Shown piece by piece: positions 1-30,800 of a stretch of 34,184 bases of DNA. The notes beneath the pieces are model-generated. The model had not been told where the DNA came from. It did not search any database and saw nothing but the letters and a program-made list of their open reading frames with translations. Origin of the DNA: Acidimicrobiia bacterium (GTDB lineage Bacteria; Actinomycetota; Acidimicrobiia; Spongiisociales; JAENVV01); the NCBI GenBank assembly GCA_040883295.1, contig JBFLKR010000048.1:1-34184 (forward strand). Reading direction: 5' to 3'. The position numbers were made by a program, and so were the translations under genes. Positions within the stretch are counted from its first letter, which is position 1; each line of letters starts with the position of its first letter.

Positions 1-185
1 ACGTCGTAGAAGTCACCGCCGATGAGATCGGCCTTTGGGACGTACCGAACGGCGATGGCGACGTCATCCCCGAGGTCCAGGTCCGTCGGTACGAGCGCCG
101 CCTCCATGGCGTCCGCGATCGCACCGTCGCGCGAGGTGGCATCCGGCTTCGCCCGTGCCGGCGGGCTCCCCACATCGTCGAGCAT
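1..185 (-). CDS. PP2C/SpoIIE-family serine phosphatase (RsbU/RsbX-like), first 61 codons only; gene continues beyond the left edge
   Basis: Not in the ORF track because there is no stop inside the window. Own minus-strand translation from ATG 185-183: MLDDVGSPPARAKPDATSRDGAIADAMEAALVPTDLDLGDDVAIAVRYVPKADLIGGDFYDV. The L.P..L....A.RY.P....GGDFYD block is the first conserved motif of SpoIIE/PP2C phosphatases. An in-frame stop at 195-197 makes ATG 185 the first possible start. Confidence 0.55.
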   Translation of the reverse strand, partial: MLDDVGSPPARAKPDATSRDGAIADAMEAALVPTDLDLGDDVAIAVRYVPKADLIGGDFYD

Positions 186-209
186 GCAGAAAGCCTACGT
201 CGCGATCGC

Positions 210-228
210 CCGGCCGCGCAGCGGCCGG
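210..228 (-). terminator. GC hairpin downstream of dps
   Basis: CCGGCCGC (210-217) gca GCGGCCGG (221-228): perfect 8-bp stem with a 3-nt loop, about 27 nt past the dps stop. No U-tract. Confidence 0.35.
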
Positions 229-255
229 TCGATCACTCGGGGTCCGGGTGCGGGG

Positions 256-828
256 TCAGTCGCGCGGATCGGCCGTGGCCGCCTGGGCGGCGGCGTCGAG
301 CTCGTCCTCGGCGCCGGCGGTCGAGAGCTCCCCGGAGGTGTTGACCAAGTGGGCCCGGATGAACCACTGTTGGAGCTCGAGGACGCCGGTCTGGGCGATG
401 AGCACGTCCTCGGTGACGGGGTCCATCTCGGCGGTTTCGCCGATCGCGGCCCGATGATCGGCGAGGATGCCGTCGTAGACGAGGTCGAGCGCCCCGAGGT
501 GGGCTTCCACCACGGCCCGGCCGAGGGCGTAGTCGTCCCACCGGCGATGCTCGGTCAGGTGGCCCGGCAGGCCGTTGGGGATGCCGCCGAGCGTGGCGAT
601 GCGTTCGGCCACCTCGTCGGACATCCGACGCACGTCGGCCACGTGCTCGTCGAGCATCTCGTGGACGGCGATGAAGCCGGGCCCGACCACGTTCCAATGG
701 ACGTGCTTGAGCGTCAGGCCGAGATCGACGAGGGAGTTGAGGCGATCCTGGAGCAGGTCGCCGACCTTGGTCGCCGTCCCCTCGTCGAGGCCGGACGGCG
801 CATAGGCAGAGTCGGTTCGGTGTGTCAT
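256..828 (-). CDS. dps: Dps, DNA-binding ferritin-like protein from starved cells
   Basis: 190-aa ORF with the Dps/ferritin-like pattern LKHVHWNVVGPGFIAVHEMLDEH...DEVAERI (ferroxidase His/Asp/Glu ligands). ATG 828 lies 9 nt downstream of a GGGTAGG -10 box. Confidence 0.9.
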   Translation of the reverse strand: MTHRTDSAYAPSGLDEGTATKVGDLLQDRLNSLVDLGLTLKHVHWNVVGPGFIAVHEMLDEHVADVRRMSDEVAERIATLGGIPNGLPGHLTEHRRWDDYALGRAVVEAHLGALDLVYDGILADHRAAIGETAEMDPVTEDVLIAQTGVLELQQWFIRAHLVNTSGELSTAGAEDELDAAAQAATADPRD

Positions 829-837
829 GTCGGCCGC

Positions 838-864
838 CTACCCGTGGTTCCGCCGGTCCAAACC
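838..864 (-). promoter_or_regulatory. SigB/SigF-class promoter P1 for dps (GGTTT-N16-GGGTAGG)
   Basis: Minus strand reads GGTTT (864-860), 16-nt spacer (859-844), GGGTAG (843-838), then G. Nine nt (837-829) separate the -10 from ATG 828, implying a leaderless or near-leaderless mRNA. Confidence 0.7.
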
Positions 865-885
865 TGCACGGTCGCGCGAGCTGCG

Positions 886-912
886 GGTTTCCGTCGCCCG
901 AACGCCGGGTAG
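886..912 (+). promoter_or_regulatory. SigB/SigF-class promoter P2 for the 938-1504 gene
   Basis: GGTTT (886-890), 16-nt spacer (891-906), GGGTAG (907-912), then G. The -10 lies 25 nt upstream of ATG 938, with GGAG at 931-934. Confidence 0.7.
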
Positions 913-937
913 GTCGCGGCCGACCCACACGGAGCAG

Positions 938-1504
938 ATGATGTACGAACGCAGCCCCTCACCCGACACCCCGCCGGTCGACGACATCGATCGCCATCCC
1001 GGCACGCCCATGACGACCCTCGGCGAGGTCCGTCGAGACCACAACCTCGTCGCGGCCTACGAGGACGCCGGCCGCGCTCGTGAGGTGATCCTCGAACTCG
1101 AGCAGGGAGGGGTCCCACCCCGCGACATCTCGCTGCTCGGTGCCTGGCCGGTCGAGCGACCGTCCGACGAGCCCGAGCGACCGCGACTGCTCGGCCGTCG
1201 GGTTGCGATCGCCGCCGGCATCGGCGCCGTGGTCTTTGGCATCGTCGGCGGGATCGTGGCCGCGGTCACCGAGGTCATCCCCCTCGTCTTCGGAGCCCTC
1301 GCCGGCGCCGGGTTCGGCGCCCTGCTCGGGGTGCCCGTGGGCTGGATGCGTGGCACCGGCATGTCCGAGGCCTGGCAGGAGACCTTCTCCGCGGACGCCG
1401 AGGGCACCGTGGCGGTGGGCGTCCACGACGACGATGCCGGCGTCATCGACGACGCCGAGCCCGTCATGGCCGCCACGAATCCCAAGGCGATGAACCGCTT
1501 CTGA
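938..1504 (+). CDS. Stress-associated membrane protein (soluble N-terminal domain plus Gly-rich transmembrane segments), function unknown
   Basis: C-terminal 188 aa of ORF 827..1504. Start moved to ATG 938 (or 941) because promoter P2 lies inside the annotated 5' extension. Hydrophobic Gly-zipper stretch: VAIAAGIGAVVFGIVGGIVAAVTEVIPLVFGALAGAGFGALLGVPVGW. Resembles general-stress (YflT-like) membrane proteins, but only by eye. Confidence 0.6.
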   Translation: MMYERSPSPDTPPVDDIDRHPGTPMTTLGEVRRDHNLVAAYEDAGRAREVILELEQGGVPPRDISLLGAWPVERPSDEPERPRLLGRRVAIAAGIGAVVFGIVGGIVAAVTEVIPLVFGALAGAGFGALLGVPVGWMRGTGMSEAWQETFSADAEGTVAVGVHDDDAGVIDDAEPVMAATNPKAMNRF

Positions 1505-1518
1505 GTCCCCGCAGACGC

Positions 1519-1558
1519 ACGACGAAGGGCCCCGGGACGTCCCGGGGCCCTTCGTCGT
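1519..1558. terminator. Perfect 40-bp palindrome, candidate bidirectional terminator between convergent genes
   Basis: ACGACGAAGGGCCCCGGGAC|GTCCCGGGGCCCTTCGTCGT. It sits between the stop at 1504 (+) and the stop at 1575 (-). Confidence 0.6.
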
Positions 1559-1574
1559 CATGGGCTGGGAGGTG

Positions 1575-1793
1575 TCAGTCCTCGCGCCGGACCACGAGCC
1601 ACACGATCAGCGCGATCACGGTTGCCAGCACCGTGCTCGCCACGGCAATCGCCCGCGGATCACTCCGCCAGCGCTCGACGGCCTCGGCGGCCTCGGCGGC
1701 GTTGCCGACCGCCGCCTCGGCAGCGTCGAGGGCCCGATTCGCCCGATCGAGGCGCTCCTCGGTCTCCCGGAGTCGTTCTGCAGTGGTGGTCAT
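1575..1793 (-). CDS. Small tail-anchored coiled-coil membrane protein (72 aa), function unknown
   Basis: MTTTAERLRETEERLDRANRALDAAEAAVGNAAEAAEAVERWRSDPRAIAVASTVLATVIALIVWLVVRRED. ATG 1793 is preceded by AGAGGAG 7 nt upstream. The longer ORF-track version (to 1949) would cover promoter P3. Confidence 0.6.
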   Translation of the reverse strand: MTTTAERLRETEERLDRANRALDAAEAAVGNAAEAAEAVERWRSDPRAIAVASTVLATVIALIVWLVVRRED

Positions 1794-1821
1794 GGACACT
1801 CCTCTTTGGATCGTGATGGCC

Positions 1822-1848
1822 CTACCCACCGAGCCGATCCGCCAAACC
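1822..1848 (-). promoter_or_regulatory. SigB/SigF-class promoter P3 for the 1575-1793 gene
   Basis: Minus strand reads GGTTT (1848-1844), 16-nt spacer (1843-1828), GGGTAG (1827-1822), then G. 28 nt to ATG 1793, including the SD. Confidence 0.7.
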
Positions 1849-2038
1849 GGTTCCCGGTCGGCGACCGGGGAGCCAGATGACGGTGGCCCTTCGCCGCTCC
1901 CTGGAACCGCCCCTCCCGCCTGCCTCCTGCGTCGGCCGGCGGGGCCCATCCACCCTTTCGGGGGGATCTCCTTCTCGTTTCCGGCTGCCGACGTCGACTT
2001 GCTTCCGGGGGAGTTCCCCCTTCTCGGAGGCAGTTCGC

Positions 2039-3091
2039 TCAGTCGATCGTGTCGCGCAGGTGCGCGAGGATGCGGCGCAGGAGCCGTGACACGTGCATCT
2101 GGGAGATGCCGACCCGCTCGGCGATCTCCGACTGGGTCAGCTCGTCGACGAAGCGCAGGCGAAGGATCGTCCGCTCTCGCTCGGGCAGCCCCGCCAGCGC
2201 GGGCCCGAGGTCGCCCAGCTGCTCCACCAGCGCCAGGTCGTCGTGCTCGTCGGCGAGGGTCTCGCCGATGCCCGAGGGCGATGGCGACCCCGGTCGCGGC
2301 GCGTCGATCGATGCCGCGGTGTAGGCCGTGGTCGCCCCGATCGCCGCCACCACCTCGTCGACGTCCATGCCGACTTCCGTGGCCACCTCGGTCGGCGAGG
2401 GGGTGCGGCCGAGCCGTTGGGCGAGATCCTCGCGAGCCCGTCCGACCTCGAGGGCCCGTTCCTGGAGACCGCGGGGCACCCGCACCGACCAGGCGCGGTC
2501 GCGTAGGAGGCGCTTCATCTCGCCGGACACGGTGGCGGCGGCGAAGCGCTCGAAGCGACCGGCTTCGGGGTCGTACCGATCCAGGGCCCGGAGCACTGCG
2601 AGGACCGCCGCCTGCTCGAGGTCGGCGTCGGCGATGCCCTTGTGCCGGTAGTGGCGGGAGATGTCGATCGCCATCGGGGCGAGCCGCCGGACGACCTCGT
2701 CGCGCGCCTCGGAATCGGTGCTCACGATGGCGAGCAGCGAATCCGTCGACTGGTCGGCCAGCGCTGCCGATGCCGACCCGGGCATCCGCACGTCGAACCA
2801 GACGGAGCCAGCGTCGTGGCCCCAGCGCAACGCGAAGCGGTCGAGGACCTCGGCGGTCAGGTCATCGGGCACCTCACCTGGCTGGATCCACACCCGGTGG
2901 GCCGTCGCCACGTCCCCCACCTCCACACGAATGCCCTCGGGGCTGCCGGCCAGCACCGTGCGGCCGACGATCTCGGAGACCAGGAGGGCCGCTGCGGCGC
3001 CTCGGACGGGGTCGAGCTCCAACTCGGCGCCGAGCCAGGCCCTGGCGGCCCGGGGGGCGTCCCGGTCGGCCGCCAGCTCGAGCGCCCTCAC
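2039..3091 (-). CDS. SigB/SigF-family (group 3) sigma-70 factor with an N-terminal RsbW-like (HATPase_c_2-like) domain fused in frame
   Basis: aa ~130-350 carry regions 2-4: DLEQAAVLAVLRALDRYDPEAGRFERFAAATVSGEMKRLLRDRAWSVRVPR; LPERERTILRLRFVDELTQSEIAERVGISQMHVSRLLRR. aa 1-102 (nt 3091-2786) follow the RsbW pattern: ...PRAARAWL...LLVSEIVGRTV...IRVEV...LDRFALRWGHDAGSVWFDV. The GTG start at 3091 overlaps the upstream stop (GTGA). Confidence 0.85.
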   Translation of the reverse strand: MRALELAADRDAPRAARAWLGAELELDPVRGAAAALLVSEIVGRTVLAGSPEGIRVEVGDVATAHRVWIQPGEVPDDLTAEVLDRFALRWGHDAGSVWFDVRMPGSASAALADQSTDSLLAIVSTDSEARDEVVRRLAPMAIDISRHYRHKGIADADLEQAAVLAVLRALDRYDPEAGRFERFAAATVSGEMKRLLRDRAWSVRVPRGLQERALEVGRAREDLAQRLGRTPSPTEVATEVGMDVDEVVAAIGATTAYTAASIDAPRPGSPSPSGIGETLADEHDDLALVEQLGDLGPALAGLPERERTILRLRFVDELTQSEIAERVGISQMHVSRLLRRILAHLRDTID

Positions 3092-3411
3092 GGGCCACCG
3101 ACTCGGATGCGGAAACCACCCGGCGTCGATTCGACGCCCGCCACCGACGAGGCGATCCGCAGGACGATGTCGTCGGGCGTGGGTGGGCGCTCGCCAACGA
3201 TCTCCACCAGGTCGGCTTCGGGAACGGTGATCACCAGCCGGCCCCCGTCCTCCCGCACGAAGGCGGTGACGAGTTCGGAGACGGCGAGCCGTGCCGAGGC
3301 GATGTCATCCTCGGTTGCCTCCCGGGATCGCAGGACGCCGGAAACGAAGGCCCGGGCCACCACCACGCCATCATCGGTGGCATCGATCTCGAGTCGGGCC
3401 GGGCCGGTCAC
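3088..3411 (-). CDS. RsbW-like anti-sigma paralogue C, degenerate (N-box Asn replaced by Ala), 107 aa
   Basis: C-terminal part of ORF 3088..3708: VTGPARLEIDATDDGVVVARAFVSGVL...ARLAVSELVTAFV...RLVITV...GGFRIRV. GTG 3411-3409 overlaps the STAS stop 3410-3408 (GTGA). The Arg-rich upstream extension is not credible coding sequence. Confidence 0.6.
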   Translation of the reverse strand: MTGPARLEIDATDDGVVVARAFVSGVLRSREATEDDIASARLAVSELVTAFVREDGGRLVITVPEADLVEIVGERPPTPDDIVLRIASSVAGVESTPGGFRIRVGGP

Positions 3412-3743
3412 TCGTCGGGCAGCTCGTCCGGTTCGTCGACGACTGGGAGCCGATCCAGCACTCCGGCGACCTCCAGCACTCGACGCACCGGACCGGGACC
3501 GCACACGAGGCCGAGTGGTCGGCCGTCCTCGGCGAGGCGTCGTCGTGCCGTGAGGAGGGACCGGAGCCCACTCGAGTCCATGAACGAGACCGACCGCAGG
3601 TCGACCGCCACCGGACCTGCGTGGGCGTCGATGGCCGCGTCGAGCGCGCCGTCGAGCGACGGAGCCGAGGCGATGTCGATCTCGCCGCTCGCCGCCACGA
3701 GGTGCCACCCACGGTGGTCGGACGTCGTCAGATGGAGGAGCAT
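3408..3743 (-). CDS. STAS-domain anti-anti-sigma factor (RsbV/SpoIIAA-like)
   Basis: MLLHLTTSDHRGWHLVAASGEIDIASAPSL...VDLRSVSFMDSSGLRSLL...GLVCGPGPVRRVLEVAGV, with the conserved phosphorylatable Ser in DSSG. Start 3743 is preferred over 3764 because the intervening codons (ATA CGA TTG) are atypical for this GC3-rich sequence. Confidence 0.85.
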   Translation of the reverse strand: MLLHLTTSDHRGWHLVAASGEIDIASAPSLDGALDAAIDAHAGPVAVDLRSVSFMDSSGLRSLLTARRRLAEDGRPLGLVCGPGPVRRVLEVAGVLDRLPVVDEPDELPDE

Positions 3744-3770
3744 GAGGTGCGCCAATCGTATCATCGGCCC

Positions 3771-4115
3771 ATGCCAGGCCCGATCCGTCTCACGGTGCCG
3801 GCCGACCCCCGGTGGCTCGGCGTCATCGACCTGGTCGTCGGCGCCGCCCCCCGATTCGTCTACGACGAGGCGGGTGTCCTCGACGACCTCGCCATCGCGG
3901 TGGGCGAGGTGGCGGCCGAGGTGGGCGCCACGGCCGGTGTCGCGGAACTCGAGGTGACCGTGGACGACGACCGGGTGGAGATCGCCGGTCGCGGCACGGA
4001 TGTGGTCTGGGAGCCGGGACCGGTGTGGGAGCGGCTCGTGCCGGGCCTGGCCGAGGTGGGGTGGGACGTCGAACCCTCGGGGATCAGGGTCTGGCTGGCG
4101 CCACTGCCAGCTTGA
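3771..4115 (+). CDS. RsbW-like paralogue B, degenerate (N-box Asn replaced by Glu), 114 aa
   Basis: Part of ORF 3291..4115 from ATG 3771: MPGPIRLTVPADPRWLGVIDLVVGAAPRFV...LAIAVGEVAAEVG...ELEVTVDDDRVEI...GIRVWL. Third codon positions are strongly G/C, as in real genes here. Confidence 0.55.
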   Translation: MPGPIRLTVPADPRWLGVIDLVVGAAPRFVYDEAGVLDDLAIAVGEVAAEVGATAGVAELEVTVDDDRVEIAGRGTDVVWEPGPVWERLVPGLAEVGWDVEPSGIRVWLAPLPA

Positions 4116-4488
4116 ACCAGGCCCGGACGTGGCCGGTCGCGGCCTCGAGGCCCCACGCATCGGCGAGGCGATCGACCAGCAGCAGGCCGAAGCCGCCGGG
4201 ATGGTCGTCCTTGCTCGGGCCCCTGACGGGGGGGCCCGTCGCGACGACCTCGACCCGGCACGTGCCGTCCTCGCTGACGATCGCGAGCAGCAGGTCCTCG
4301 CCACCTTCGAGTCCACGGTGGCGGAGGACGTTGGTCACGATCTCCGACGTCAGGATCTCGGCGACCTCGGTGATCGACCCGTCCCCGAGATGCCCGCGCA
4401 CGGCCCGACGGGCGGCAGCGGGGGCCCGATCGTCCGCCGGCAGCGTGATGGCCTCGGTGGCCGATTCCGTGGTGCCCCGGTCGGTCAT
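4084..4488 (-). CDS. RsbW/SpoIIAB-type anti-sigma factor (HATPase_c_2), paralogue A
   Basis: 134 aa. N-box intact (SEIVTNVLRH). G2-like GGFGLLLVDRLADAWG. The G1 position reads VVATGPP (Asp missing). ATG 4488 overlaps the stop of the upstream gene (ATGA). Confidence 0.8.
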   Translation of the reverse strand: MTDRGTTESATEAITLPADDRAPAAARRAVRGHLGDGSITEVAEILTSEIVTNVLRHRGLEGGEDLLLAIVSEDGTCRVEVVATGPPVRGPSKDDHPGGFGLLLVDRLADAWGLEAATGHVRAWFKLAVAPARP

Positions 4489-4988
4489 GGGCGGTCACCG
4501 TACCCGGAGTCACCGTCGTCCTCGGTGCGGAAGGAGAACACGGGCAGCCAGAACCAGGCCCAGGTCGTGAAGCCGAGTACGGCCGCGGCGACCGCCGCGG
4601 CCGGGATCACGCCGAACAGCAGCGAGGTGACGAACCAGGCGACGGCGCCGATGGCGACGGCGGCCGCCACCGTTCCGGCCAGGGCCAGGTGCACCGCGAT
4701 TCGCACGTGGCCCAGGTGCTTGCGAGGTATCCCCGTCAGCGGTGCCCGGACCCGTTGGTGCACCGAGGGGGCGATGAGCAGCACCGAGGCGGCGCCGGCG
4801 GCGGCGAACGCGACGTAGTACGACGCCCGCTGGTCGGCCGTGGCCGTCGTGAACGGACTCGACAACGGGACCGTGAGGAGGAAGGCGAAGAGGACCATCA
4901 CCCCGGGGATCGTCGTTCGGAGCCCCTCGAGCAGGGCCCGGAATCGCTGGTCGATCCCGTCGTCGGTGACGTCGTCGGAGGATCGCAT
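4485..4988 (-). CDS. DUF6328-like integral membrane protein
   Basis: 167 aa. RALLEGLRTTIPGVMVLFAFLLTVPL plus further hydrophobic helices resembles the actinobacterial DUF6328 family (from memory, not searched). ATG 4988 lies 9 nt downstream of a GGGTAGG box. Confidence 0.55.
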   Translation of the reverse strand: MRSSDDVTDDGIDQRFRALLEGLRTTIPGVMVLFAFLLTVPLSSPFTTATADQRASYYVAFAAAGAASVLLIAPSVHQRVRAPLTGIPRKHLGHVRIAVHLALAGTVAAAVAIGAVAWFVTSLLFGVIPAAAVAAAVLGFTTWAWFWLPVFSFRTEDDGDSGYGDRP

Positions 4989-4997
4989 GACGAGCGC

Positions 4998-5024
4998 CTA
5001 CCCGGGCTCGCTGCTCGCCAAACC
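4998..5024 (-). promoter_or_regulatory. SigB/SigF-class promoter P4 for the DUF6328-rsbW operon
   Basis: Minus strand reads GGTTT (5024-5020), 16-nt spacer (5019-5004), GGGTAG (5003-4998), then G. Nine nt (4997-4989) to ATG 4988, the same geometry as P1. Confidence 0.7.
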
Positions 5025-5036
5025 GGTCCGGGGCCG

Positions 5037-5063
5037 GGTTTCGTGGGCCGCGTCTGCGGGTAG
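5037..5063 (+). promoter_or_regulatory. SigB/SigF-class promoter P5 for the ferredoxin gene
   Basis: GGTTT (5037-5041), 16-nt spacer (5042-5057), GGGTAG (5058-5063), then G. 29 nt to ATG 5093. Confidence 0.7.
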
Positions 5064-5092
5064 GTGTGGGGCCACCTATCGGGGACAACCAC

Positions 5093-5419
5093 ATGAGTGA
5101 CGACACCACCACGCTGATGGTCTGGATCGACCAGGACCTCTGCACCGGCGACGGGATCTGCGAGGAGATCGCCCCCGACGTCTTCGTCGGTCGCGACGAC
5201 GGCCTCTGGGTCGTCAAGGAGGAGGCCGAGCACTTCGGCGAGACGATCGTCTTCGACGGTCGCGACGGCGATGGTCACGGTCCCGAAGGCGCCCGCGGCG
5301 TCGCCCGGGTGCCCGACGAGCTCATCGACGACACCGTCGAGGCCGCCCAGGAGTGCCCCGGCGAGTGCATCATGATCGAGCCGTACGACGCACAGCTCGT
5401 CGACGAACGCGCCGCCTGA
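5093..5419 (+). CDS. Single-cluster ferredoxin (CxxDxxC...CP type)
   Basis: MSDDTTTLMVWIDQDLCTGDGICEEIAPDVF...AAQECPGECIMIE. Start set at ATG 5093 because GTG 5066 lies only 2 nt after the P5 -10 box. Confidence 0.8.
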   Translation: MSDDTTTLMVWIDQDLCTGDGICEEIAPDVFVGRDDGLWVVKEEAEHFGETIVFDGRDGDGHGPEGARGVARVPDELIDDTVEAAQECPGECIMIEPYDAQLVDERAA

Positions 5420-7297: not shown

Positions 7298-9048
7298 GCG
7301 AGCGGTCGGCGAGTGCCGTCGTCGTCCGGGCGATCCGGGAGGTGCCGCCGTTCCGCGTCGGTCTCGCCTTCACGCTCGTGCTCGTCCTCCTCGGCACCGG
7401 CGCCCAGGTCGTCGTGCCCATCTACCTCCAGCGGCTGACCGACGCCGGCTCGCTCGGCAGCCTCGACCCAGTCACCGTGCTCGGCCTCGGCGCCGGAGCG
7501 GCGACCTTCGTCGTGGCCGGGGTGCTGGCGTCGCGGGCGGCCCGCATCCGCCTCATGGAGGCCTCCACCCGGGGGCTCCACGTCCTGCGGACCGAGACGT
7601 TCGCCCGTCTCCACGCCCAGTCGGTGCTCGTCACCCAGGAACGCCGGCGGGGAGCGCTCATCGCCCGGGTCACCAACGACGTCGAGCGGGTGCAGGAGTT
7701 CATGGAGTGGGGCGGCGTGGGGCTGCTGGTCGGCTCCGCCCGGGTGGTCGTGATGCTCGGGATCATGGTGGTCTACTCGTGGCAGCTGGCGCTGCTCGTC
7801 GGCGTCGCCACGGCCGTCTACGGGGGGTTGTTGCTCGGCTTCCAGCGGGTGCTGGCCCGCGCCCACGACACGGCCCGGCTCCGGGTCGCCGATGTCATGG
7901 CGACCACCGGCGAGGCGATCTCGGGCCTGCCGATCGTTCGAACCCACGGGGCCGAGCGCCACACGCTCCGCAAGCTCGACCGGGCCCTCTTCCGGGAGTT
8001 CCGAGCCGACTTCCGGGCTGCGGTGCTGGGCAACGTGCTGTTCGCCACCGCCGAGGCGTACGCCGGCGGGATCACGGCCGGGGTGCTGGCGTTCGGGATC
8101 TGGCTCGGCCTGGCCGGCGAGGTGACCGCGGGCGTGTTGGTGGCCTTCTTCTTCCTCGTGGCGCTTCTGGTGGAGCCGGTCCAGACGATGGTGGAGACCC
8201 TCGACCCGGCCCAGGCCGCCGGGGCGGGCCTCCGGCGGATCTTCGAGGTGCACGACGAGCCGATCGAGGTGGCCGACCCGGGCCCCGGCGGCACGCCGCT
8301 GCCACCGGGCCGTCTCGGCCTCGAGTTGGTCGACCTCGGCTACACCTACCCGGACGGGACCGAGGCGGTCGCCGGGGTGACACTGACGGTGGCGCCGGGC
8401 GAGCGGGTGGCGATCGTCGGCGAGACCGGGTCGGGGAAGACGACGTTCGCCAAGCTCGCCGCCCGCATCCTCGAGCGGGACTCGGGCGACTTCCACATCG
8501 GCGGGGTGCCGATCGACCGGATCCCGTTCGCGTCGCTCCGTCGTCGGGTCACCTACGTGCCCCAGGAGGGGTTCCTCCACGACGACACGATCGAGGGCAA
8601 CGTCCGCTACGGCCGGCTCGATGCCACCCGCGCCGAGGTGGAGGCGGCGTTCGCCGACCTCGGCCTCGCGGAGTGGGTGGCGAGCCTTCCCGAAGGACTC
8701 GACACCCGGGTGGGGGAGCGGGGCGGCCGCCTCTCGGCGGGGGAGCGCCAGCTCGTCGCGCTGGTGCGGGCCTCCATCGCCGATCCCGACCTGCTCGTCC
8801 TCGACGAGGCGACCTCCTCGGTCGATCCCGCCCTCGAGGTGGGGCTCCGCCGGGCCCTCGAGGTGCTGCTGGCCGGGCGCACGAGCCTCACCATCGCCCA
8901 CCGGCTCTCGACCGCCGAGGCCGCCGACCGGGTGCTCGTGTTCGACGGGGGGCGGATCGTCGAGGACGGGACCCACGCCGAACTGGTCGCCACCGGGGGC
9001 GTCTACGCCGGGCTGCACGCCGATTGGATCCGGGGCACCCGGACCTGA
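7294..9048 (+). CDS. ABC exporter, fused permease/ATPase subunit 2 (degenerate signature)
   Basis: 584 aa. Walker A GETGSGKTT, signature LSAGERQLVALVRASI, Walker B LLVLDEATSSVD, H-loop IAHRLST. GTGA overlap with subunit 1. Confidence 0.9.
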   Translation: MSERSASAVVVRAIREVPPFRVGLAFTLVLVLLGTGAQVVVPIYLQRLTDAGSLGSLDPVTVLGLGAGAATFVVAGVLASRAARIRLMEASTRGLHVLRTETFARLHAQSVLVTQERRRGALIARVTNDVERVQEFMEWGGVGLLVGSARVVVMLGIMVVYSWQLALLVGVATAVYGGLLLGFQRVLARAHDTARLRVADVMATTGEAISGLPIVRTHGAERHTLRKLDRALFREFRADFRAAVLGNVLFATAEAYAGGITAGVLAFGIWLGLAGEVTAGVLVAFFFLVALLVEPVQTMVETLDPAQAAGAGLRRIFEVHDEPIEVADPGPGGTPLPPGRLGLELVDLGYTYPDGTEAVAGVTLTVAPGERVAIVGETGSGKTTFAKLAARILERDSGDFHIGGVPIDRIPFASLRRRVTYVPQEGFLHDDTIEGNVRYGRLDATRAEVEAAFADLGLAEWVASLPEGLDTRVGERGGRLSAGERQLVALVRASIADPDLLVLDEATSSVDPALEVGLRRALEVLLAGRTSLTIAHRLSTAEAADRVLVFDGGRIVEDGTHAELVATGGVYAGLHADWIRGTRT

Positions 9049-9053
9049 CACGA

Positions 9054-9104
9054 CTTCCTGTCGGGCTCACCCTCCTCTGGGAAGGCCCAGGCCGACAAGA
9101 ACGA
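9054..9104 (+). repeat. 51-nt palindromic intergenic element, copy X
   Basis: CTTCCTGTCGGGCTCACCCTCCTCTGGGAAGGCCCAGGCCGACAAGAACGA. 41/51 identical, without gaps, to 20625-20675. The arms can pair at 10/12 positions. Starts 5 nt after the stop at 9048. Confidence 0.5.
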
Positions 9105-9186
9105 TCGACGATGACCTCTCACGTCATCGAACTGGTGACGTGGGGACGGCACGATGGGGGGCGAAGCCATCGCAACGCCCGAGGTT

Positions 9187-9215
9187 TTGTACAGCATGGC
9201 CAACCCACGTACGCT
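9187..9215 (+). promoter_or_regulatory. Candidate housekeeping-type promoter of the atp operon
   Basis: TTGTAC (9187-9192), 17-nt spacer, TACGCT (9210-9215; TAnnnT). About 20 nt upstream of ATG 9235. Pattern match only. Confidence 0.3.
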
Positions 9216-9234
9216 CCCGGCCCGGAACGGAGGC

Positions 9235-9486
9235 ATGGCGAGACAAGGCACGACCAAAGAGATCGCCGAGTCCATGAAGAAGACGGACATCGGCGGCTCC
9301 TTCCTCGGCTCCATCGTCGCCGGGCTCCTGATCGGGCTGTTGCTCGATTGGTGGCTCGGTACGGAGCCCTGGTTCGTGATCGGCCTCGCGCTGCTCGGGT
9401 CATATTCCGGGTTCATGCGGGTCTGGCACTACGCCAAGGTCCAGGGAGAACTCGAGGACGAGGAACGGAGAGCACGTGGACGTTGA
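9235..9486 (+). CDS. AtpZ/AtpI-family small membrane protein preceding the atp operon
   Basis: GSFLGSIVAGLLIGLLLDWWLGTEPWFVIGLALLGSYSGFMRVW is typical of AtpZ-like proteins. Start uncertain: ATG 9235 after GGAGG, or ATG 9274. The ORF track starts at 9154. Confidence 0.6.
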   Translation: MARQGTTKEIAESMKKTDIGGSFLGSIVAGLLIGLLLDWWLGTEPWFVIGLALLGSYSGFMRVWHYAKVQGELEDEERRARGR

Positions 9487-9871
9487 GGCCAGGATCGCCC
9501 GGAACACGGTCCGCAGGGCCGCGTTCGTGGGTCCGGTCGTCGTCCTCGCCTCCTGGCTCCTCGCCGGGACCGACGGAGCCATCGCCGCCCTGGTGGGCGT
9601 CGTCGCCGTGGTGGGCAACTTCCTGCTGGCCGGCTGGATCCTGTCCGTGGCGGCCCGCATCTCCCCCGGTGCCTATCATGCCGCCGCGCTACTGGGCTTC
9701 ATCCTCCGATTCGCCCTCCTGGCAGCGACCGTGTTCGGGGTCGCCGCCTTCGTGGAGCTCGATCGGGTGACGTTCGCAATCGCAACGGTGGTCACGTACC
9801 TCGTCCTCCTGTCCTGGGAGACGGTGGCCGTGGCCCGCGGAAGGGAAAGGGAACTCGAGTGGACCACATGA
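9476..9871 (+). CDS. atpI: ATP synthase protein I (AtpI)-like membrane protein
   Basis: 131-aa hydrophobic protein with about four TM helices, in the canonical position directly before atpB. GTG start overlapping the previous gene. Confidence 0.6.
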   Translation: MDVEARIARNTVRRAAFVGPVVVLASWLLAGTDGAIAALVGVVAVVGNFLLAGWILSVAARISPGAYHAAALLGFILRFALLAATVFGVAAFVELDRVTFAIATVVTYLVLLSWETVAVARGRERELEWTT

Positions 9872-10689
9872 TCCTGGCGGTCGAGGAGTGCGACGCTGCC
9901 AACGTGGCGATGTGCACGCCGTCCGAGGTGGGGGTGCTCTTCGAGTTTCCGCCGCTCTTCCCCGACAGCGAGCTGTGGTCGTGGGTCACCCGCACCGAGG
10001 TGCTCATCCTCCTCGCCGCCATCATCCCGGTCGTGATGGTCTTCGTCGCCCTGCGCAAGCCGAAGCTGGTGCCCGGCAAGTTCCAGCTCTTCATCGAGTC
10101 GGTCTACAACTCGATCGATCAGGGCATCTCCAAGGACATCATCGGTCCCGAGGGCTCCCGCTACACCCCCTACCTGATCTCGCTGTTCGCCTTCATCTTC
10201 TTCGGGAACATCTTCGAGGTCACGCCCTTCGTCAACTTCCCGGTCACGTCCCGGATCGCCCTCCCCGCGTTCCTGGCACTCCTGACCTGGTTCATCTTCA
10301 TCATCGCCGGCATCTCCAAGCAGGGCCTGACCTACTTCGGCCACCTCATCTGGCCCCCCGGGATCCCGATCGCCCTCCGTCCGCTGGTGGGCGTCATCGA
10401 GTTCGTCTCGGTGCTGTTCGTGCGGCCGTTCTCGCTGGCGGTGCGGCTCTTCGCCAACCTCGTCGCCGGCCACACGATGCTGGCGCTGCTCCTCAGCACG
10501 GCCGGGATCTTCATCTGGGGGTTCATCCAGGGCGACCTCGGCTTCGGGAAGGCCCTCACGGGTGGGGCGTGGTTCCTGTTGGCCCTCGGGATCTACGTGT
10601 TCGAGATCCTCGTCTCGTACCTCCAGGCCTACATCTTCACGCTCCTGTCCGCCGTCTACATCGAGAGCTCGCTCCACCCCGAGCACTGA
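9859..10689 (+). CDS. atpB: F0F1 ATP synthase subunit a
   Basis: Contains the essential-Arg motif SLAVRLFANLVAGH. Start is GTG 9859 or ATG 9868. Confidence 0.95.
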   Translation: MDHMILAVEECDAANVAMCTPSEVGVLFEFPPLFPDSELWSWVTRTEVLILLAAIIPVVMVFVALRKPKLVPGKFQLFIESVYNSIDQGISKDIIGPEGSRYTPYLISLFAFIFFGNIFEVTPFVNFPVTSRIALPAFLALLTWFIFIIAGISKQGLTYFGHLIWPPGIPIALRPLVGVIEFVSVLFVRPFSLAVRLFANLVAGHTMLALLLSTAGIFIWGFIQGDLGFGKALTGGAWFLLALGIYVFEILVSYLQAYIFTLLSAVYIESSLHPEH

Positions 10690-10950
<261 letters not shown>

Positions 10951-10962
10951 GAGACGCCCGTC

Positions 10963-11505
10963 ATGACGGACGTGTTCCTGTTGGCCGCCGAGGAGGGCGG
11001 GAGCGAGGGCGGGCTGTCCTTCCTGCTCCCGGCCACATCCGAGCTCGTGATGGGCATCTTCGCCTTCCTGATCGTCTTCGCGGTCATGTGGCGCTTCGCG
11101 GTGCCCGGCATGCGACGGCTCATGGACGAGCGGCAGGCCGCCATCAGCGGCCAGATCGAGGCCGCCGAGGCCGCCCGCACCGAGGCCGACCGGCTCCGGG
11201 CGGAGTACGAGCAGCAGCTCGCCGGGGCCAAGACGGAGGCGAACGGTGTCATCGAGGAGGCCCGCGCCTCCGCCGAGACGGTCCGCGCCGACATCGTCGC
11301 CAGGGCCGAGGAGGAGGCCGCCCGGATCCGGGAGAAGGCCCAGGCCGACGCCGATGCCGAGAAGGCCCGGGTCCTCGCCGAAGCGAGGAGCGAGGTCGCC
11401 GGCCTGTCGGTCAGCCTCGCCGAGAAGGTCGTGGGTGGCTCCCTCGACGACGAGCGCCAGCGGGCCCTCGTCGAGCAGTACCTGTCCCAGCTCGAGTCGG
11501 AGTAG
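10963..11505 (+). CDS. atpF: F0F1 ATP synthase subunit b
   Basis: One N-terminal TM helix followed by a long Ala/Glu/Arg-rich helix. Position between atpE and atpH. Confidence 0.9.
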   Translation: MTDVFLLAAEEGGSEGGLSFLLPATSELVMGIFAFLIVFAVMWRFAVPGMRRLMDERQAAISGQIEAAEAARTEADRLRAEYEQQLAGAKTEANGVIEEARASAETVRADIVARAEEEAARIREKAQADADAEKARVLAEARSEVAGLSVSLAEKVVGGSLDDERQRALVEQYLSQLESE

Positions 11506-27992: not shown

Positions 27993-28035
27993 TCGTTGTC
28001 TGCCAACGGATCCAACCGAATCGACGGGAATCGGT

Positions 28036-28049
28036 TGTAACCGCTTTCG
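28036..28049. promoter_or_regulatory. LacI-family-type operator O2 (one mismatch)
   Basis: TGTAACCGCTTTCG; the last dinucleotide is CG instead of CA. 46 nt upstream of GTG 28095. Confidence 0.35.
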
Positions 28050-28094
28050 GGAATCGATAGCATCCACGCCCGTACCCAGGGCTCAGGAGGGCAC

Positions 28095-29261
28095 GTGGCC
28101 ACCATCTCATTCAACGACGTCGGCAAGATCTACCCCGGGGGCACCCGGGCGATCCAGGGCGTCAACATGGAGATCGACGACGGCGAGTTCGTCGTCCTCG
28201 TCGGACCGTCGGGCTGTGGCAAGTCGACGCTGCTGCGAATGGTCGCCGGGCTGGAGGAGATCACCGAGGGCACCATCGCCATCGGCGACCGGGTGGTGAA
28301 CGACGTCGCCCCCAAGGACCGCGATATCGCCATGGTCTTTCAGAACTACGCCCTGTACCCGCACATGACGGTGTACGACAACATGGCCTTCGGTCTGAAG
28401 CTGCGGAAGTTCAGCAAGGACGAGATCGAGCGTCGGGTGCAGGAGGCGGCGCGAGTCCTCGAGATCACGGACTACCTCGAGCGCAAGCCGAAGGCGCTCT
28501 CGGGTGGCCAGCGCCAGCGGGTGGCCATGGGCCGGGCCATCGTCCGCGAACCGTCGGCCTTCCTGATGGACGAGCCGCTGTCCAACCTCGACGCCAAGCT
28601 CCGGGTGCAGATGCGCTCCGAGTTGGGACTGTTGCATGCACGCCTCGGCACGACCACCGTCTACGTCACCCACGACCAGGTGGAGGCCATGACGATGGGC
28701 GACCGGGTCGCGGTCATGCGCAAGGGCATGCTCCAGCAGGTCGACTCCCCGACCACGCTCTACCGTGAACCGACCAACCTGTTCGTGGCCGGTTTCATCG
28801 GCAGTCCCTCGATGAACTTCATCAACGGGACGCTGACCCGGATCGAGGGATCGACGCCGGCGCTCACCTATGGCAACCACACGCTCGAGCTCCGCAAGGT
28901 TCCGGACAACTTCGCCGAGGGCGAGATCGTGATCGGGATCCGCCCCGAGGCCTTCGACGTCGTCCACGGAGAGGACCCCGGCGACCGTCGGGTCATCGAG
29001 GCCGAGGCGGAGCTCGTCGAGCAGCTCGGTTCCGACGCGTTCATCCACTTCGACCTGCCCATCCGGCCCGTCATCACCCCGGACATCCGCGAGTTGTTGG
29101 AAGACCAGGGTGCCGACGAGTCGAGCCTCGGGGAGACGACCAAGATCGTCGCCCGGGTCGACCCCCAGCTCGCGCCTCGGGCCGGCGAGAAGGTTCGGCT
29201 GACGGTCGACACCGAGAAGGTGCACTTCTTCGACAAGGAGTCCGGTGACGTGATCACCTGA
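28095..29261 (+). CDS. Sugar ABC importer ATPase, MalK/MsiK/UgpC type
   Basis: GPSGCGKST, LSGGQRQRVAMGRAI, FLMDEPLSNLD, plus the C-terminal regulatory (TOBE-like) domain. AGGAGG precedes the GTG start. Confidence 0.92.
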   Translation: MATISFNDVGKIYPGGTRAIQGVNMEIDDGEFVVLVGPSGCGKSTLLRMVAGLEEITEGTIAIGDRVVNDVAPKDRDIAMVFQNYALYPHMTVYDNMAFGLKLRKFSKDEIERRVQEAARVLEITDYLERKPKALSGGQRQRVAMGRAIVREPSAFLMDEPLSNLDAKLRVQMRSELGLLHARLGTTTVYVTHDQVEAMTMGDRVAVMRKGMLQQVDSPTTLYREPTNLFVAGFIGSPSMNFINGTLTRIEGSTPALTYGNHTLELRKVPDNFAEGEIVIGIRPEAFDVVHGEDPGDRRVIEAEAELVEQLGSDAFIHFDLPIRPVITPDIRELLEDQGADESSLGETTKIVARVDPQLAPRAGEKVRLTVDTEKVHFFDKESGDVIT

Positions 29262-29280
29262 CGGTCCCCGATCCTCCTGC

Positions 29281-29312
29281 GACCGGCCCCGGGTGTCCGC
29301 CCGGGGCCGGTC
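29281..29312 (+). terminator. Strong GC hairpin after the ATPase gene
   Basis: GACCGGCCCCGG (29281-29292), 8-nt loop, CCGGGGCCGGTC (29301-29312). 20 nt after the stop. Confidence 0.55.
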
Positions 29313-29337
29313 CGCGTCCCGATGGGCGAATTCGGAA

Positions 29338-29351
29338 TGAAACCGTTTACA
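29338..29351. promoter_or_regulatory. LacI-family-type operator O3
   Basis: TGAAACCGTTTACA matches TGnAAnCGnTTnCA at all constrained positions. Confidence 0.45.
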
Positions 29352-29359
29352 AACGGGTC

Positions 29360-29373
29360 TGTAACCGTTTACA
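29360..29373. promoter_or_regulatory. LacI-family-type operator O4
   Basis: TGTAACCGTTTACA: full consensus match, 6 of 7 palindromic pairs. 51 nt upstream of the malE GTG 29424. Confidence 0.5.
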
Positions 29374-29423
29374 GTGGGGTCGGCCCGTAATCGGGTCCGA
29401 GCCTTTACAGGAGGAAAACAATC

Positions 29424-30746
29424 GTGCGTACCAAGCACTGGTTGCGTCTCGTAGGCCTCACCCTCGCTCTCGCCCTCGTGGTGGCGGCGTGTGGTGGCGA
29501 CGACGCAACCGACGACACCGAGGCCGGCGACACCACCACGACGGAGGCCGCCGAGGAGACCACCACGACCGAGGCTGCCGAGGAGACCACCACGACGGAG
29601 GCCCCCGAGGCCACCGGCTCGCTCCTCATCTGGGCCGACGCCAACCAGGCCCCCGTCTTCGAGGCGGTCGGTGCCGACTTCACCGAGGCCACCGGCGTGG
29701 AGGTCGAGGTCCAGGTCGTCGACCGTGGTGACATCCGCGAGCAGGTCCAGGTCGCCGGCCCCGCCGGCGAGGGTCCCGACATCTTCGTGGGTGCCTTCGA
29801 CTGGACCGGCGAGCTCGCCGCCAATGGCGTCATCGCCCCCGTCGACCTCGGCGCCAACGCCGACGATTTCTTCCAGGTCGCCGTCGACGGCTTCAGTTTC
29901 GGGGGCGAGCTCTACGGCGTCCCGGTGTCGACCGAGGCCATCGCCATGATCGTCAACAACGACCTGGTGCCCGTCGAGGACACCCCGACGGCGATCGAGG
30001 ACCTGGCCGGCGTCTGCGAGGGCATCGAGGGCCTCGAGACCTGTCTGGCGGTCCAGGGCGGCGGCGATGCCGGTGACCTGTACCACATGATCTGGTTCCT
30101 GACGGCCCCAGGTGGCTACATCTTCGGTTTCGACGAGGAGGCCGGCTACGACACGACCGACGTCGGACTCGACTCACCGGGTGCCATCGAGGGCGCCGAG
30201 GTGATCGACCAGCTCACCCGGGACGGCGTCATGGCGTCGATCAACGGTGACACCGCCCAGAACCTGTTCCTCGAGGGTCAGGCACCCTTCTGGGTCACCG
30301 GCCCGTGGAACGTCAGCACCCTCAACGACTCCGGGATCAACTACTCGGTCGTGAAGCTCCCGACCATCGGTGGTGAGACCCCGGCCCCGTTCGTGGGATC
30401 CAACGGCGTCTTCCTGTCGGCCTTCTCCGAGAACGCCGTCATCGCCCAGACGTTCCTGAGCGACTACATCGCCACGACCGAGGTGCAGCGGGCGATCTAC
30501 GATGCCGACCCCCGCAACCCGGCCACCCAGAGCGTGCTCGACCAGCTCGCCGACGATCCGGTCGTCGCGGCCTTCACCTTGTCGGGTGCGGATGGCATCC
30601 CGATGCCGAACATCCCGGAGATGAACTCCGTGTGGGCGGCCGGGGGCGACAACATCCTCGCCCTGCGCAATGGCCAGATCGACCCCGAGCTGGCCATGAC
30701 CTCGGCGGCGGACACCGTGCGTACGCTTCTGGCCGAGGCCGGCTGA
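29424..30746 (+). CDS. malE: Maltose/maltodextrin-binding lipoprotein
   Basis: Signal peptide with lipobox LVVAAC. LLIWADANQAPVFEAVGADFTEATGVEVEV...GPDIFVGAFDW parallels E. coli MalE. AGGAGG SD, GTG start. Confidence 0.9.
   Translation: MRTKHWLRLVGLTLALALVVAACGGDDATDDTEAGDTTTTEAAEETTTTEAAEETTTTEAPEATGSLLIWADANQAPVFEAVGADFTEATGVEVEVQVVDRGDIREQVQVAGPAGEGPDIFVGAFDWTGELAANGVIAPVDLGANADDFFQVAVDGFSFGGELYGVPVSTEAIAMIVNNDLVPVEDTPTAIEDLAGVCEGIEGLETCLAVQGGGDAGDLYHMIWFLTAPGGYIFGFDEEAGYDTTDVGLDSPGAIEGAEVIDQLTRDGVMASINGDTAQNLFLEGQAPFWVTGPWNVSTLNDSGINYSVVKLPTIGGETPAPFVGSNGVFLSAFSENAVIAQTFLSDYIATTEVQRAIYDADPRNPATQSVLDQLADDPVVAAFTLSGADGIPMPNIPEMNSVWAAGGDNILALRNGQIDPELAMTSAADTVRTLLAEAG
29532..29609 (+). repeat. 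2.9 copies of a 27-bp tandem repeat inside malE (TTTTEAAEE linker)
   Basis: Units at 29532-29558, 29559-29585 and 29586-29609 (ACCACCACGACsGAGGCyGCCGAGGAG). They encode TTTTEAAEE TTTTEAAEE TTTTEAPE just after the lipobox Cys. Confidence 0.9.
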
Positions 30747-30800
30747 GCCGATAGTCAGCAACCGCACAGAGACACCGAGCGCGGGGAGGAGGCAGGATCG

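Follow-up and report, generated by a model that had tools for sequence, protein, structure and literature searches.

A predicted partner-switching island of an Acidimicrobiia bacterium, in which the sigma factor carries an N-terminal RsbW-derived domain

Introduction

Partner switching is the textbook control of general-stress and sporulation sigma factors in Gram-positive bacteria, and in its textbook form sigma and anti-sigma factor are, to our knowledge, always regarded as separate proteins, and their stoichiometry matters. A 5.4-kb gene island at positions 1-5419 of contig JBFLKR010000048.1 (assembly GCA_040883295.1), from a bacterium of the abundant and largely uncultured class Acidimicrobiia, raises the question of whether the two can be parts of one polypeptide and, if so, how a switch built around such a sigma factor would operate. 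The window analyzed here is the complete contig of 34,184 bp from an NCBI metagenome-assembled genome (MAG), with locus tags of the form AB1Z57_041xx. A sequence-only reading had listed in the island a phosphatase fragment, a STAS protein, four RsbW-like domains, one of them fused to a sigma factor, and five genes or operons preceded by a common promoter motif; each of these was confirmed, at the position given there or a few bases from it. Our gene map of the island was built from six-frame open reading frames (ORFs), codon-position GC content and profile searches against Pfam and NCBIfam. By homology the island belongs with the SigF/SigB partner switch of actinobacteria, and it would work in the same way; it is real and conserved, and the N-terminal RsbW-derived domain on its sigma factor appears to be undescribed.

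The genes of the switch itself are located as follows (aa, amino acids).

2039..3091, minus strand: sigma gene, 350 aa (Pfam regions 2, 3 and 4 above threshold)
2039..2710, minus strand: sigma core, residues 128-350 and the stop codon, with regions 2, 3 and 4 of a group-3 sigma of the SigF/SigB/SigG family
2777..3091, minus strand: N-terminal RsbW-derived domain of the sigma, residues 1-105 (hhalign; Pfam matches of family members)
3088..3411, minus strand: 107-aa RsbW/UsfX-like protein in the classical rsbW position (hhalign, weak NCBIfam matches, sequence matches in the PDB)
3408..3743, minus strand: STAS anti-sigma-factor antagonist, 111 aa (Pfam STAS/STAS_2, 1e-16; NCBIfam ant_ant_sig)
3771..4115, plus strand: 114-aa divergent RsbW-fold protein (GC frame, homologues, AlphaFold model, Foldseek)
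4084..4488, minus strand: 134-aa RsbW-like protein (Pfam HATPase_c_2 above threshold; named "ATP-binding protein" by NCBI)
1..185, minus strand: 5' end of a probable PP2C phosphatase gene of the SpoIIE family, running off the left end of the window

The sigma factor and its N-terminal domain

The assignment of the 350-aa protein to the SigB/F type holds. Its best NCBIfam models are SigF (NF005514) and SigBFG (TIGR02980), with scores below their cut-offs, and the core is 43-48% identical to the unfused SigF/SigB-like sigmas of Mycobacterium, Rhodococcus, Nocardia, and Streptomyces; by sequence comparison, the core belongs to the actinobacterial SigF/SigB-like group. The protein ends with region 4 at residue 350 and has no C-terminal STAS domain, that is, it is not a fusion of the sigma-SsdA type. 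Public annotation names the proteins of this family "sigma-70 family RNA polymerase sigma factor" (NCBI, the protein of the window) or "sigma-B factor" and leaves the fusion unmarked.

Residues 1-105 have no Pfam match of their own; however, the corresponding part is matched by HATPase_c_2 in 36 of the 75 aligned family members (best E-value 2.4e-10). When the N-terminal block was compared by hhalign with the family of stand-alone RsbW proteins, the two aligned over the full length with 99.65% probability (E = 5e-25), while reversed-sequence controls of this comparison reached 1.9-3.3%; over all hhalign comparisons the controls gave at most 3.3% in nine cases of ten and 42% in one. The RsbW-like domain that had been described as covalently fused to the sigma is thus supported both by the profile and by the family alignment. 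In the AlphaFold model, residues 1-100 are predicted with a mean local confidence (pLDDT) of about 95 and have the topology beta-alpha-alpha-beta-beta-alpha-beta-beta. A Foldseek search with the full-length model returned SigB of Bacillus subtilis and Staphylococcus aureus as the top matches; since sigma structures dominate these matches, the search provides no independent evidence for the fold of the N-terminal domain.

The fusion is not an assembly error, since four contigs, each from a sequencing run of its own (SRR28267353-56), carry the identical 350-aa sigma. When 5.8 billion proteins were searched with the full-length sigma, more than 100 clusters of proteins 337-370 aa long were retrieved, covering over 89% of the query including its N-terminus, and every named source among them belongs to the Acidimicrobiia. 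The arrangement is therefore not a peculiarity of one strain, the more so as the whole island recurs in another locus, described below. Phmmer with the 110-aa N-terminal domain against 1.84 billion representative sequences gave six matches only, four fused sigmas and two proteins of about 125 aa, the query being too short and divergent. A scan of genome contigs with the sigma family alignment places the sigma core and is no measure of the taxonomic spread of the fusion; most of the matches listed are SigF/SigB-like genes without the fusion, from Mycobacterium, Streptomyces, and Nocardia, and the N-terminal domain is present at four of the loci listed.

The conserved positions of the domain give some indication of what it may do. 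R17 and E40 align with R20 and E46 of SpoIIAB, in which R20, T49, and E104 are needed for binding of SpoIIAA, as stated in PMC4166321 with reference to Campbell 2002 and Masuda 2004. With respect to the nucleotide-binding motifs the family splits almost cleanly: N44, H48, G77, and G79, which make up an intact N-box and GxGF box, occur together in 35 of the 75 members, whereas 34 have none of them. The sigma of the window falls into the latter, degenerate group, its N-box Asn being replaced by Arg44 and the GxG box being lost. This loss of the four residues, together with the faster evolution of the domain (median identity of 32%, against 52% for the sigma core), could be taken to mean that in the clade of the window the domain is a decaying remnant of an rsbW-sigma fusion and that regulation proceeds wholly via the STAS protein, the 107-aa protein, and the PP2C phosphatase. 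We consider such decay improbable. The domain is retained at full length in 75 of 75 aligned members; R17 is invariant and E40, W90, W98, R102, and G105 are nearly so; the gene has a GC content at third codon positions (GC3) of 0.91, and the fold is predicted with very high confidence. Moreover, the degenerate state is common to 34 of 75 members, which argues for a stable alternative function. The N-terminal domain is clearly real and under constraint.

The STAS protein, the phosphatase and the stand-alone RsbW-like proteins

GTGA stop/start overlaps couple the STAS gene to the 107-aa gene (3408-3411) and the latter to the sigma gene (3088-3091), and with this order and these overlaps the core of the island keeps the rsbV-rsbW-sigB gene order. 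The departure from the textbook layout that had been claimed for the island is therefore smaller than stated: the fused domain is a true departure, the order of the three coupled genes is the classical one.

The STAS protein matches TIGR00377 (ant_ant_sig) with 66.8 bits against a cut-off of 53.45 (1.3e-18). Its phosphorylatable serine, reported earlier as the serine of a DSSG motif, is Ser57 in FMDSSG; D56, S57, and G59 are invariant in seven of seven orthologues, and the motif of the family is DS(S/T)G. The starts of the STAS gene and of the divergently transcribed 114-aa gene are only 27 nucleotides (nt) apart (3744-3770), without a SigF-type motif between them, so both promoters must lie inside the neighboring coding sequence. 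A TACGAT hexamer 11 nt upstream of the STAS ATG is a visual lead only.

As for the phosphatase, 61 residues are encoded in the window, reading MLDD...LIGGDFYD with about 55 residues before the GGDFYD motif. The fragment alone, being too short, has no Pfam match, but it shares 49% identity with the beginning of its syntenic counterpart in locus L005, a gene that matches Pfam SpoIIE at 3e-7, above threshold; as read earlier, the fragment is probably part of a PP2C phosphatase.

All four RsbW-like modules have profile or structure support, though of differing strength, and the statement that three of the four lack the N-box Asn proved correct: the position is occupied by R44 in the sigma N-terminus, A50 in the 107-aa protein, and E50 in the 114-aa protein, and the Asn is kept only in the 134-aa protein. 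All four are shortened between beta-3 and the GxGL helix and do not have the ATP lid of kinase-competent GHKL proteins.

The 107-aa protein has an invariant RLAVSELVTA motif, in which Ala replaces the N-box Asn, and it keeps A19-R20 and T49. By hhalign it resembles the stand-alone RsbW family with 95.7% probability and the fused domain with 97%; the NCBIfam matches to RsbW and RsbA are weak. Its best solved structures are those of the anti-SigF factor RsbW/UsfX of Mycobacterium tuberculosis (8jzt_B and 8ih8_C; E = 0.005, marginal), followed by SpoIIAB and RsbW, and its profile picks the ORF directly upstream of sigF in a dozen Mycobacterium loci (4e-7 to 3e-4). UsfX also lacks the N-box Asn, reading AVDEVCTR in the structure-match alignment. 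On the strength of the hhalign, NCBIfam, and structure matches and of the ORFs upstream of sigF, we read the 107-aa protein as a putative anti-sigma factor of the UsfX/RsbW1 type; its gene likewise lies directly upstream of the sigma gene, with the GTGA overlap, and encodes an RsbW-like protein with Ala in place of the Asn.

The 134-aa protein scores 29.9 bits with HATPase_c_2, above the gathering score of 27.4. It keeps the N-box (E49/N53) and the GGFGL box, and has Ala at the position of the G1-box Asp of RsbW and SpoIIAB; its family as a whole keeps E49, T52, N53, and GGFGL, with Q, A, or G in place of this Asp, which is present in Rv1364c as well. Given the loss in the G1 box, the kinase competence of the protein seems doubtful. 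Its gene starts in an ATGA overlap with the stop codon of the upstream gene for a DUF6328 membrane protein; the two are translationally coupled and are also adjacent in L005 and near each other in L006. The pairing hints at a membrane-linked input to the switch. An additional GGGTAC at 4501-4505 (minus strand), 12 nt before the 134-aa start and inside the end of the DUF6328 gene, has no properly spaced GTTT -35 element and may represent either a chance occurrence or an internal promoter of low strength.

The 114-aa protein is divergent. It reached 92% by hhalign, and its AlphaFold model (pLDDT 86, predicted template-modeling score (pTM) 0.81) had RsbW, UsfX, or SpoIIAB as all of its top 19 Foldseek matches in the PDB (E from 1e-6 to 8e-4, TM 0.5-0.7). 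The gene is kept in L005-L008 and in some loci with unfused sigma. The possibility that this ORF is an antisense artefact was considered and rejected, as the plus strand has the better codon-position GC, the ORF is conserved elsewhere, and the predicted fold is confidently RsbW-like. Its end overlaps the convergent 134-aa gene by 32 nt (4084-4115), and a matching overlap is present in the gene calls of L005, L006, and L007. Transcripts reading through from the promoter of the DUF6328 gene would run antisense across the 114-aa gene and on into the STAS/107-aa/sigma operon. Neither in these genes nor elsewhere in the island did we find disabling changes: the coding statistics are normal and there are no disruptions.

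The promoter motif and the putative regulon

The motif GTTT-N16-GGGTAG occurs in five exact copies in the 34-kb window, all of them within 838-5063, against an expectation of 0.01 (500-fold enrichment), and each copy lies directly upstream of an island gene, 3-30 nt from the start codon. The common SigB/F-class motif that had been noticed at five genes or operons is thereby confirmed. The sites and the genes behind them are the following.

838..863, minus strand: promoter motif GTTTGG-N14-GGGTAG of dps, with 10 nt between the end of its -10 element and the ATG; present in L005
256..828, minus strand: dps, ferritin-like DNA-protecting protein, 190 aa (Pfam Ferritin 2.9e-19; NCBIfam Dps 1.6e-26)
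887..912, plus strand: promoter motif for the 188-aa gene, back-to-back with the dps motif; kept in L005
938..1504, plus strand: 188-aa protein with a Gly-rich hydrophobic C-terminal half (GC3 0.88; syntenic 178-aa gene in L005)
1822..1847, minus strand: promoter motif for the 72-aa gene; kept in L001, L003, L004, and L005
1575..1793, minus strand: 72-aa protein with a coiled-coil stretch and, at the C-terminus, a transmembrane segment (gene calls of 72-73 aa in L001, L003, L004, and L005)
4998..5023, minus strand: promoter motif of the DUF6328-rsbW operon, its -10 element likewise 10 nt away from the ATG; kept in L001, L002, and L005
4485..4988, minus strand: DUF6328 membrane protein, 167 aa (Pfam DUF6328 3.8e-21)
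5038..5063, plus strand: promoter motif for the ferredoxin gene, back-to-back with the DUF6328 motif; kept in L001, L002, and L005
5093..5419, plus strand: single-cluster 4Fe-4S ferredoxin, 108 aa (Pfam Fer4_15 3.8e-14)

Four of the sites are arranged back-to-back in divergent pairs (those of dps and the 188-aa gene, and those of DUF6328-rsbW and the ferredoxin gene), and the fifth, that of the 72-aa gene, stands alone. In the divergent pairs (838-912 and 4998-5063) the -35 elements are separated by 23 bp and 14 bp, respectively. Since the -10 elements of dps and DUF6328 end 10 nt before the ATG, the corresponding transcripts would be nearly leaderless. The start of the ferredoxin gene had been placed at 5066; this has to be revised, ATG 5093 being probably the true start by comparison with the L005 orthologue, which begins MPDETKLMVWIDQDLC, 30 nt past its -10 element. 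The 188-aa and 72-aa proteins have no family match in Pfam or NCBIfam. The N-terminal part of the former (VAAYEDAGRAREVILELEQGGVPPRDISLLG) resembles a domain of the YflT/general-stress-protein-17M type, which is a lead only, with no significant Pfam or NCBIfam model.

The extended consensus of the five sites, GGTTT(G/C)(G/C)-N14-GGGTAG, fits both the mycobacterial SigF promoters, with the consensus GGWWT-N16-17-GGGTAY (PMC7693655), and the mapped promoters of Streptomyces coelicolor SigB homologues, such as SCO1276p with GTTTGC-N14-GGGTAG (PMC8346170); the final base is G, against Y in the mycobacterial consensus. The five predicted promoters thus have the form by which SigF/SigB promoters are recognized upstream of genes, either that mycobacterial consensus or GTTTNN-N12-14-GGGTAN of Bacillus and Streptomyces. 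No SigF-type motif was found at the STAS/107-aa/sigma operon. A promoter and terminator scan gave no sigma-70-type promoter and one terminator-like site, at chance level.

The motifs might be read by a different SigB/SigF-like paralogue, or might not be promoters at all, their clustering at the sigma gene being incidental. The SigB homologues of S. coelicolor cross-recognize promoters extensively (PMC8346170), and the genome is seen here through this one contig, so that it may encode further sigmas. Against this, none of 100 shuffles reached five matches, the positions of the motifs are kept in L005 at 61% identity of the sigma protein, and in ten independent loci the motifs are found near the fused sigma gene. 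The extreme case is L011 (Acidimicrobiia MAG contig DATKCE010000017.1, 1-15068), where 15 sites of the form GTTT-N15-17-GGGTA are found in 15 kb around the fused sigma gene, a local cluster of putative targets much larger than that of the window. In view of this recurrence we give little credence to an incidental clustering, and recognition of the five sites by the sigma of the island itself stays our working assumption.

Conservation of the island in related bacteria

The island recurs as a whole in L005, a locus from a JGI metagenome whose sigma is 61% identical to that of the window. All eleven genes are present there with order and orientation unchanged, beside the matching ABC exporters and ATP synthase genes, and all five motif sites are at equivalent positions. 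L006 and L007 (sigma 47-50% identical) have a second RsbW besides the fused sigma, the STAS gene, both the 134-aa and the 107-aa type, and the 114-aa gene. Two SpoIIE phosphatases and a further STAS are present in L006. Among the genes preceded by the motif there are those of Dps and DUF2383. Further loci (L008-L011, L022, and L027) are reduced to STAS, fused sigma, and a stand-alone RsbW, the last being missing from the available sequence of L010; in L008, short genes related to the 107-aa and 114-aa ones are present as well. The clustering of motifs around the sigma gene recurs in the fused-sigma loci L005-L007 and L011; in L005-L009 and L011 the motif precedes the gene of the stand-alone RsbW, and general-stress genes (Dps, CsbD, DUF2383, and Transgly_assoc) cluster near fused-sigma loci.

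Two further groups of loci bear on the role of the fused domain. In L009-L011 the STAS gene is followed directly by the fused sigma gene, with no separate 107-aa gene, and in L010 and L011 the fused domain is N-box-positive; these gene orders fit with the domain supplying the anti-sigma function where the 107-aa gene is absent. In the Acidimicrobiia loci L035 and L070 the sigma is unfused and the order is the plain one of STAS, 107-aa type, and sigma.

The proposed regulatory circuit

On balance, we incline to the view that the island is a general-stress partner switch of the SigF/SigB type, packed together with part of its own regulon, in which RsbW paralogues share the labor and the fused domain acts in cis. 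The contacts between the proteins, the role of each paralogue, and the reading of the motif by this sigma are what we infer from the analogies described here. The STAS, 107-aa, and sigma genes would form one translationally coupled operon, and the sigma would be kept inactive by RsbW-type modules, the UsfX-like 107-aa protein acting in trans and the N-terminal domain of the sigma itself serving as a tethered, cis-acting anti-sigma or STAS-docking domain. We favor this role of the domain because the R20 equivalent is kept, the constraint is clear, and the domain occurs in loci without an anti-sigma gene between STAS and sigma. Unphosphorylated STAS protein would bind to the RsbW-type surface (the equivalents of SpoIIAB R20, E46, and T49) and free the sigma, and the PP2C phosphatase would keep the STAS protein active by removing the phosphate from Ser57. 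The free sigma would then transcribe five units: dps, the genes of the two membrane proteins, DUF6328 with the 134-aa gene, and the ferredoxin gene. As the motif precedes the DUF6328/134-aa unit, the 134-aa RsbW-like protein would be sigma-dependent, and either as a kinase or as an extra anti-sigma factor it could provide negative feedback. The 114-aa protein may be a further modulator, possibly an RsbW-binding antagonist like RsbW3 of M. smegmatis. In that organism RsbW1 is the anti-sigma factor, RsbW2 is the kinase, and RsbW3 is an antagonist that binds RsbW1 (PMC7693655). In the clade of the window, which has the UsfX-like protein besides a fused domain that would be a pseudo-kinase, a similar division of roles is possible.

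Several points weigh against this circuit. None of the modules of the island resembles a canonical GHKL kinase, and with the G1-box Asp missing from the 134-aa protein, Ser57 of the STAS protein is left without an evident kinase. The domain of the window has lost the N-box and GxG box while its clade gained a UsfX-like protein, to which the original function may have been handed over. The full-length AlphaFold model of the sigma has a pTM of 0.53 and gives cis docking of the N-terminal domain no structural support. The fused-sigma family is known from sequences and models alone, the sigma reaches 212 bits with the SigBFG model (TIGR02980), below its cut-off of 234, and another SigB-like paralogue elsewhere in the genome could be reading the motif.

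The fused domain might also act otherwise, as a built-in antagonist or docking site which pairs with the 107-aa or the 134-aa protein and tunes or recruits the anti-sigma factor in trans without blocking the sigma. RsbW and SpoIIAB act as dimers. The stand-alone RsbW family is what the N-terminal domain resembles most (the hhalign match at E = 5e-25), and in the clade of the window a separate UsfX-like protein occupies the canonical anti-sigma position, translationally coupled to the sigma; an interaction between two RsbW paralogues, RsbW3 and RsbW1, has been shown in M. smegmatis (PMC7693655). However, L009-L011 have the fused sigma and no 107-aa gene, hence the domain cannot depend on that partner everywhere, and we regard such pairing as a rather unlikely, if serious, alternative to inhibition in cis.

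With inhibition in cis retained as the preferred explanation, a broader proposal can be made, more tentatively, for the fused family as a whole. It may represent a self-contained sigma, in which an RsbW-type module is tethered to a group-3 sigma and the switch operates within one polypeptide. The half of the family with intact N-box and GxG box might bind nucleotide or phosphorylate the STAS protein, and the clade of the window would be a later, pseudo-kinase stage with the roles spread over three paralogues. We hold this to be quite possible, though not yet to be preferred.

Genomic setting

To the right of the island lie two ABC exporters, an F1Fo ATP synthase operon, and genes for a glutaminase, an ABC-F protein, BipA, Rpe, and a sugar ABC transporter; this part of the chromosome is ordinary. 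No tRNA and no Rfam family was found in the 34-kb window. The GC content of the contig is about 72% and even along its length. It falls to 0.65-0.68 at 9001-11000 and 28001-33000, as compared with about 0.72 elsewhere, with the beginning of the ATP synthase operon in the former segment and the sugar ABC transporter cluster in the latter. The idea of a mobile island was rejected in view of the even GC content and of the adjoining ATP synthase operon, whose synteny is matched in L005. One more feature was read from the sequence between dps and the PP2C gene.

210..228, minus strand: GC-rich hairpin ccggccg-cgcag-cggccgg

The hairpin is a possible terminator, though without a U-tail; the terminator scan did not call it, and a similar hairpin is found at the matching place in L005.

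Comparison with known systems

The sequence-only reading had known of no description of this architecture. For the N-terminal RsbW domain on a group-3 sigma this still applies, as we found none in the full-text literature searched, mostly without subscription journals, although such absence is not proof; for the RsbW paralogues without the Asn it does not, since these are known in mycobacteria as non-kinase paralogues with split roles (UsfX/RsbW1, RsbW2, and RsbW3; PMC7693655). Circuits with several paralogues and partner-switching fusions (Rv1364c, SipA, and sigma-SsdA's STAS domain; PMC10733313) are also already known. If the proposed circuit is true, an anti-sigma fold tethered to its sigma would be a new wiring option, with 1:1 stoichiometry, inhibition in cis, and possibly faster resetting. 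With sigma, antagonist, four RsbW variants, and five target promoters in 5.4 kb, the island is also a compact test system that could be transferred to a heterologous host, and it offers a first handle on stress regulation in the Acidimicrobiia.

The closest known relative is the mycobacterial SigF system with UsfX/RsbW1, RsbW2, RsbW3, RsfA, and RsfB (PMC7693655). The two share the sigma core, given the 43-48% identity to unfused actinobacterial sigmas, the promoter consensus (GGTTT-N16-GGGTA), an Asn-less RsbW-like gene directly upstream of the sigma gene whose product has UsfX as the best structure match (8jzt, 8ih8), and the combination of several RsbW paralogues with a STAS antagonist bearing a phosphorylatable serine. 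In contrast to the mycobacterial system, the sigma of the island bears the RsbW-derived N-terminal domain, the STAS gene shares an operon with the sigma gene, the UsfX-like protein is shorter (107 vs. 145 aa), and all parts lie with five target promoters within 5.4 kb.

With the RsbV-RsbW-SigB and SpoIIAA-SpoIIAB-SigF modules of Bacillus the island has in common the order of STAS, RsbW-like, and sigma genes, a putative PP2C phosphatase nearby, the DSSG serine of the STAS protein, and, among the putative targets, Dps and small membrane proteins. The 107-aa protein keeps the equivalents of SpoIIAB R20, E46, and T49 (PMC4166321). Unlike its Bacillus counterpart, however, the protein in the rsbW position has neither the N-box Asn nor the ATP lid and is therefore unlikely to be the kinase; the island has, besides, the fused domain and two more paralogues, and there are no stressosome genes in the window.

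As to fusions, sigma-SsdA of Actinoplanes missouriensis, the partner of SipA, carries a C-terminal STAS domain and was published as "unique" (PMC10733313). It is likewise an actinobacterial group-3 sigma covalently joined to a partner-switching domain, through which its regulator acts; the fused domain is, however, an N-terminal one of the RsbW (anti-sigma) type in the island and a C-terminal STAS (antagonist) domain in sigma-SsdA, to whose family the island does not belong. Rv1364c of M. tuberculosis (PAS-PP2C-RsbW-STAS; PDB 3ke6), to whose RsbW domain the 134-aa family has its best sequence match in the PDB, also unites partner-switching modules in one polypeptide, but it lacks a sigma domain, while in the island the phosphatase, the STAS protein, and three RsbW modules are separate proteins. 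Finally, sigmas of the extracytoplasmic function (ECF) type with fused extensions, such as ECF41 (PMC3426412), similarly carry their own regulatory domain in cis, which replaces or supplements an anti-sigma factor. The two cases are non-homologous: an ECF sigma with a SnoaL-like C-terminal extension there, and a group-3 sigma with an N-terminal RsbW domain of the Bergerat fold here.

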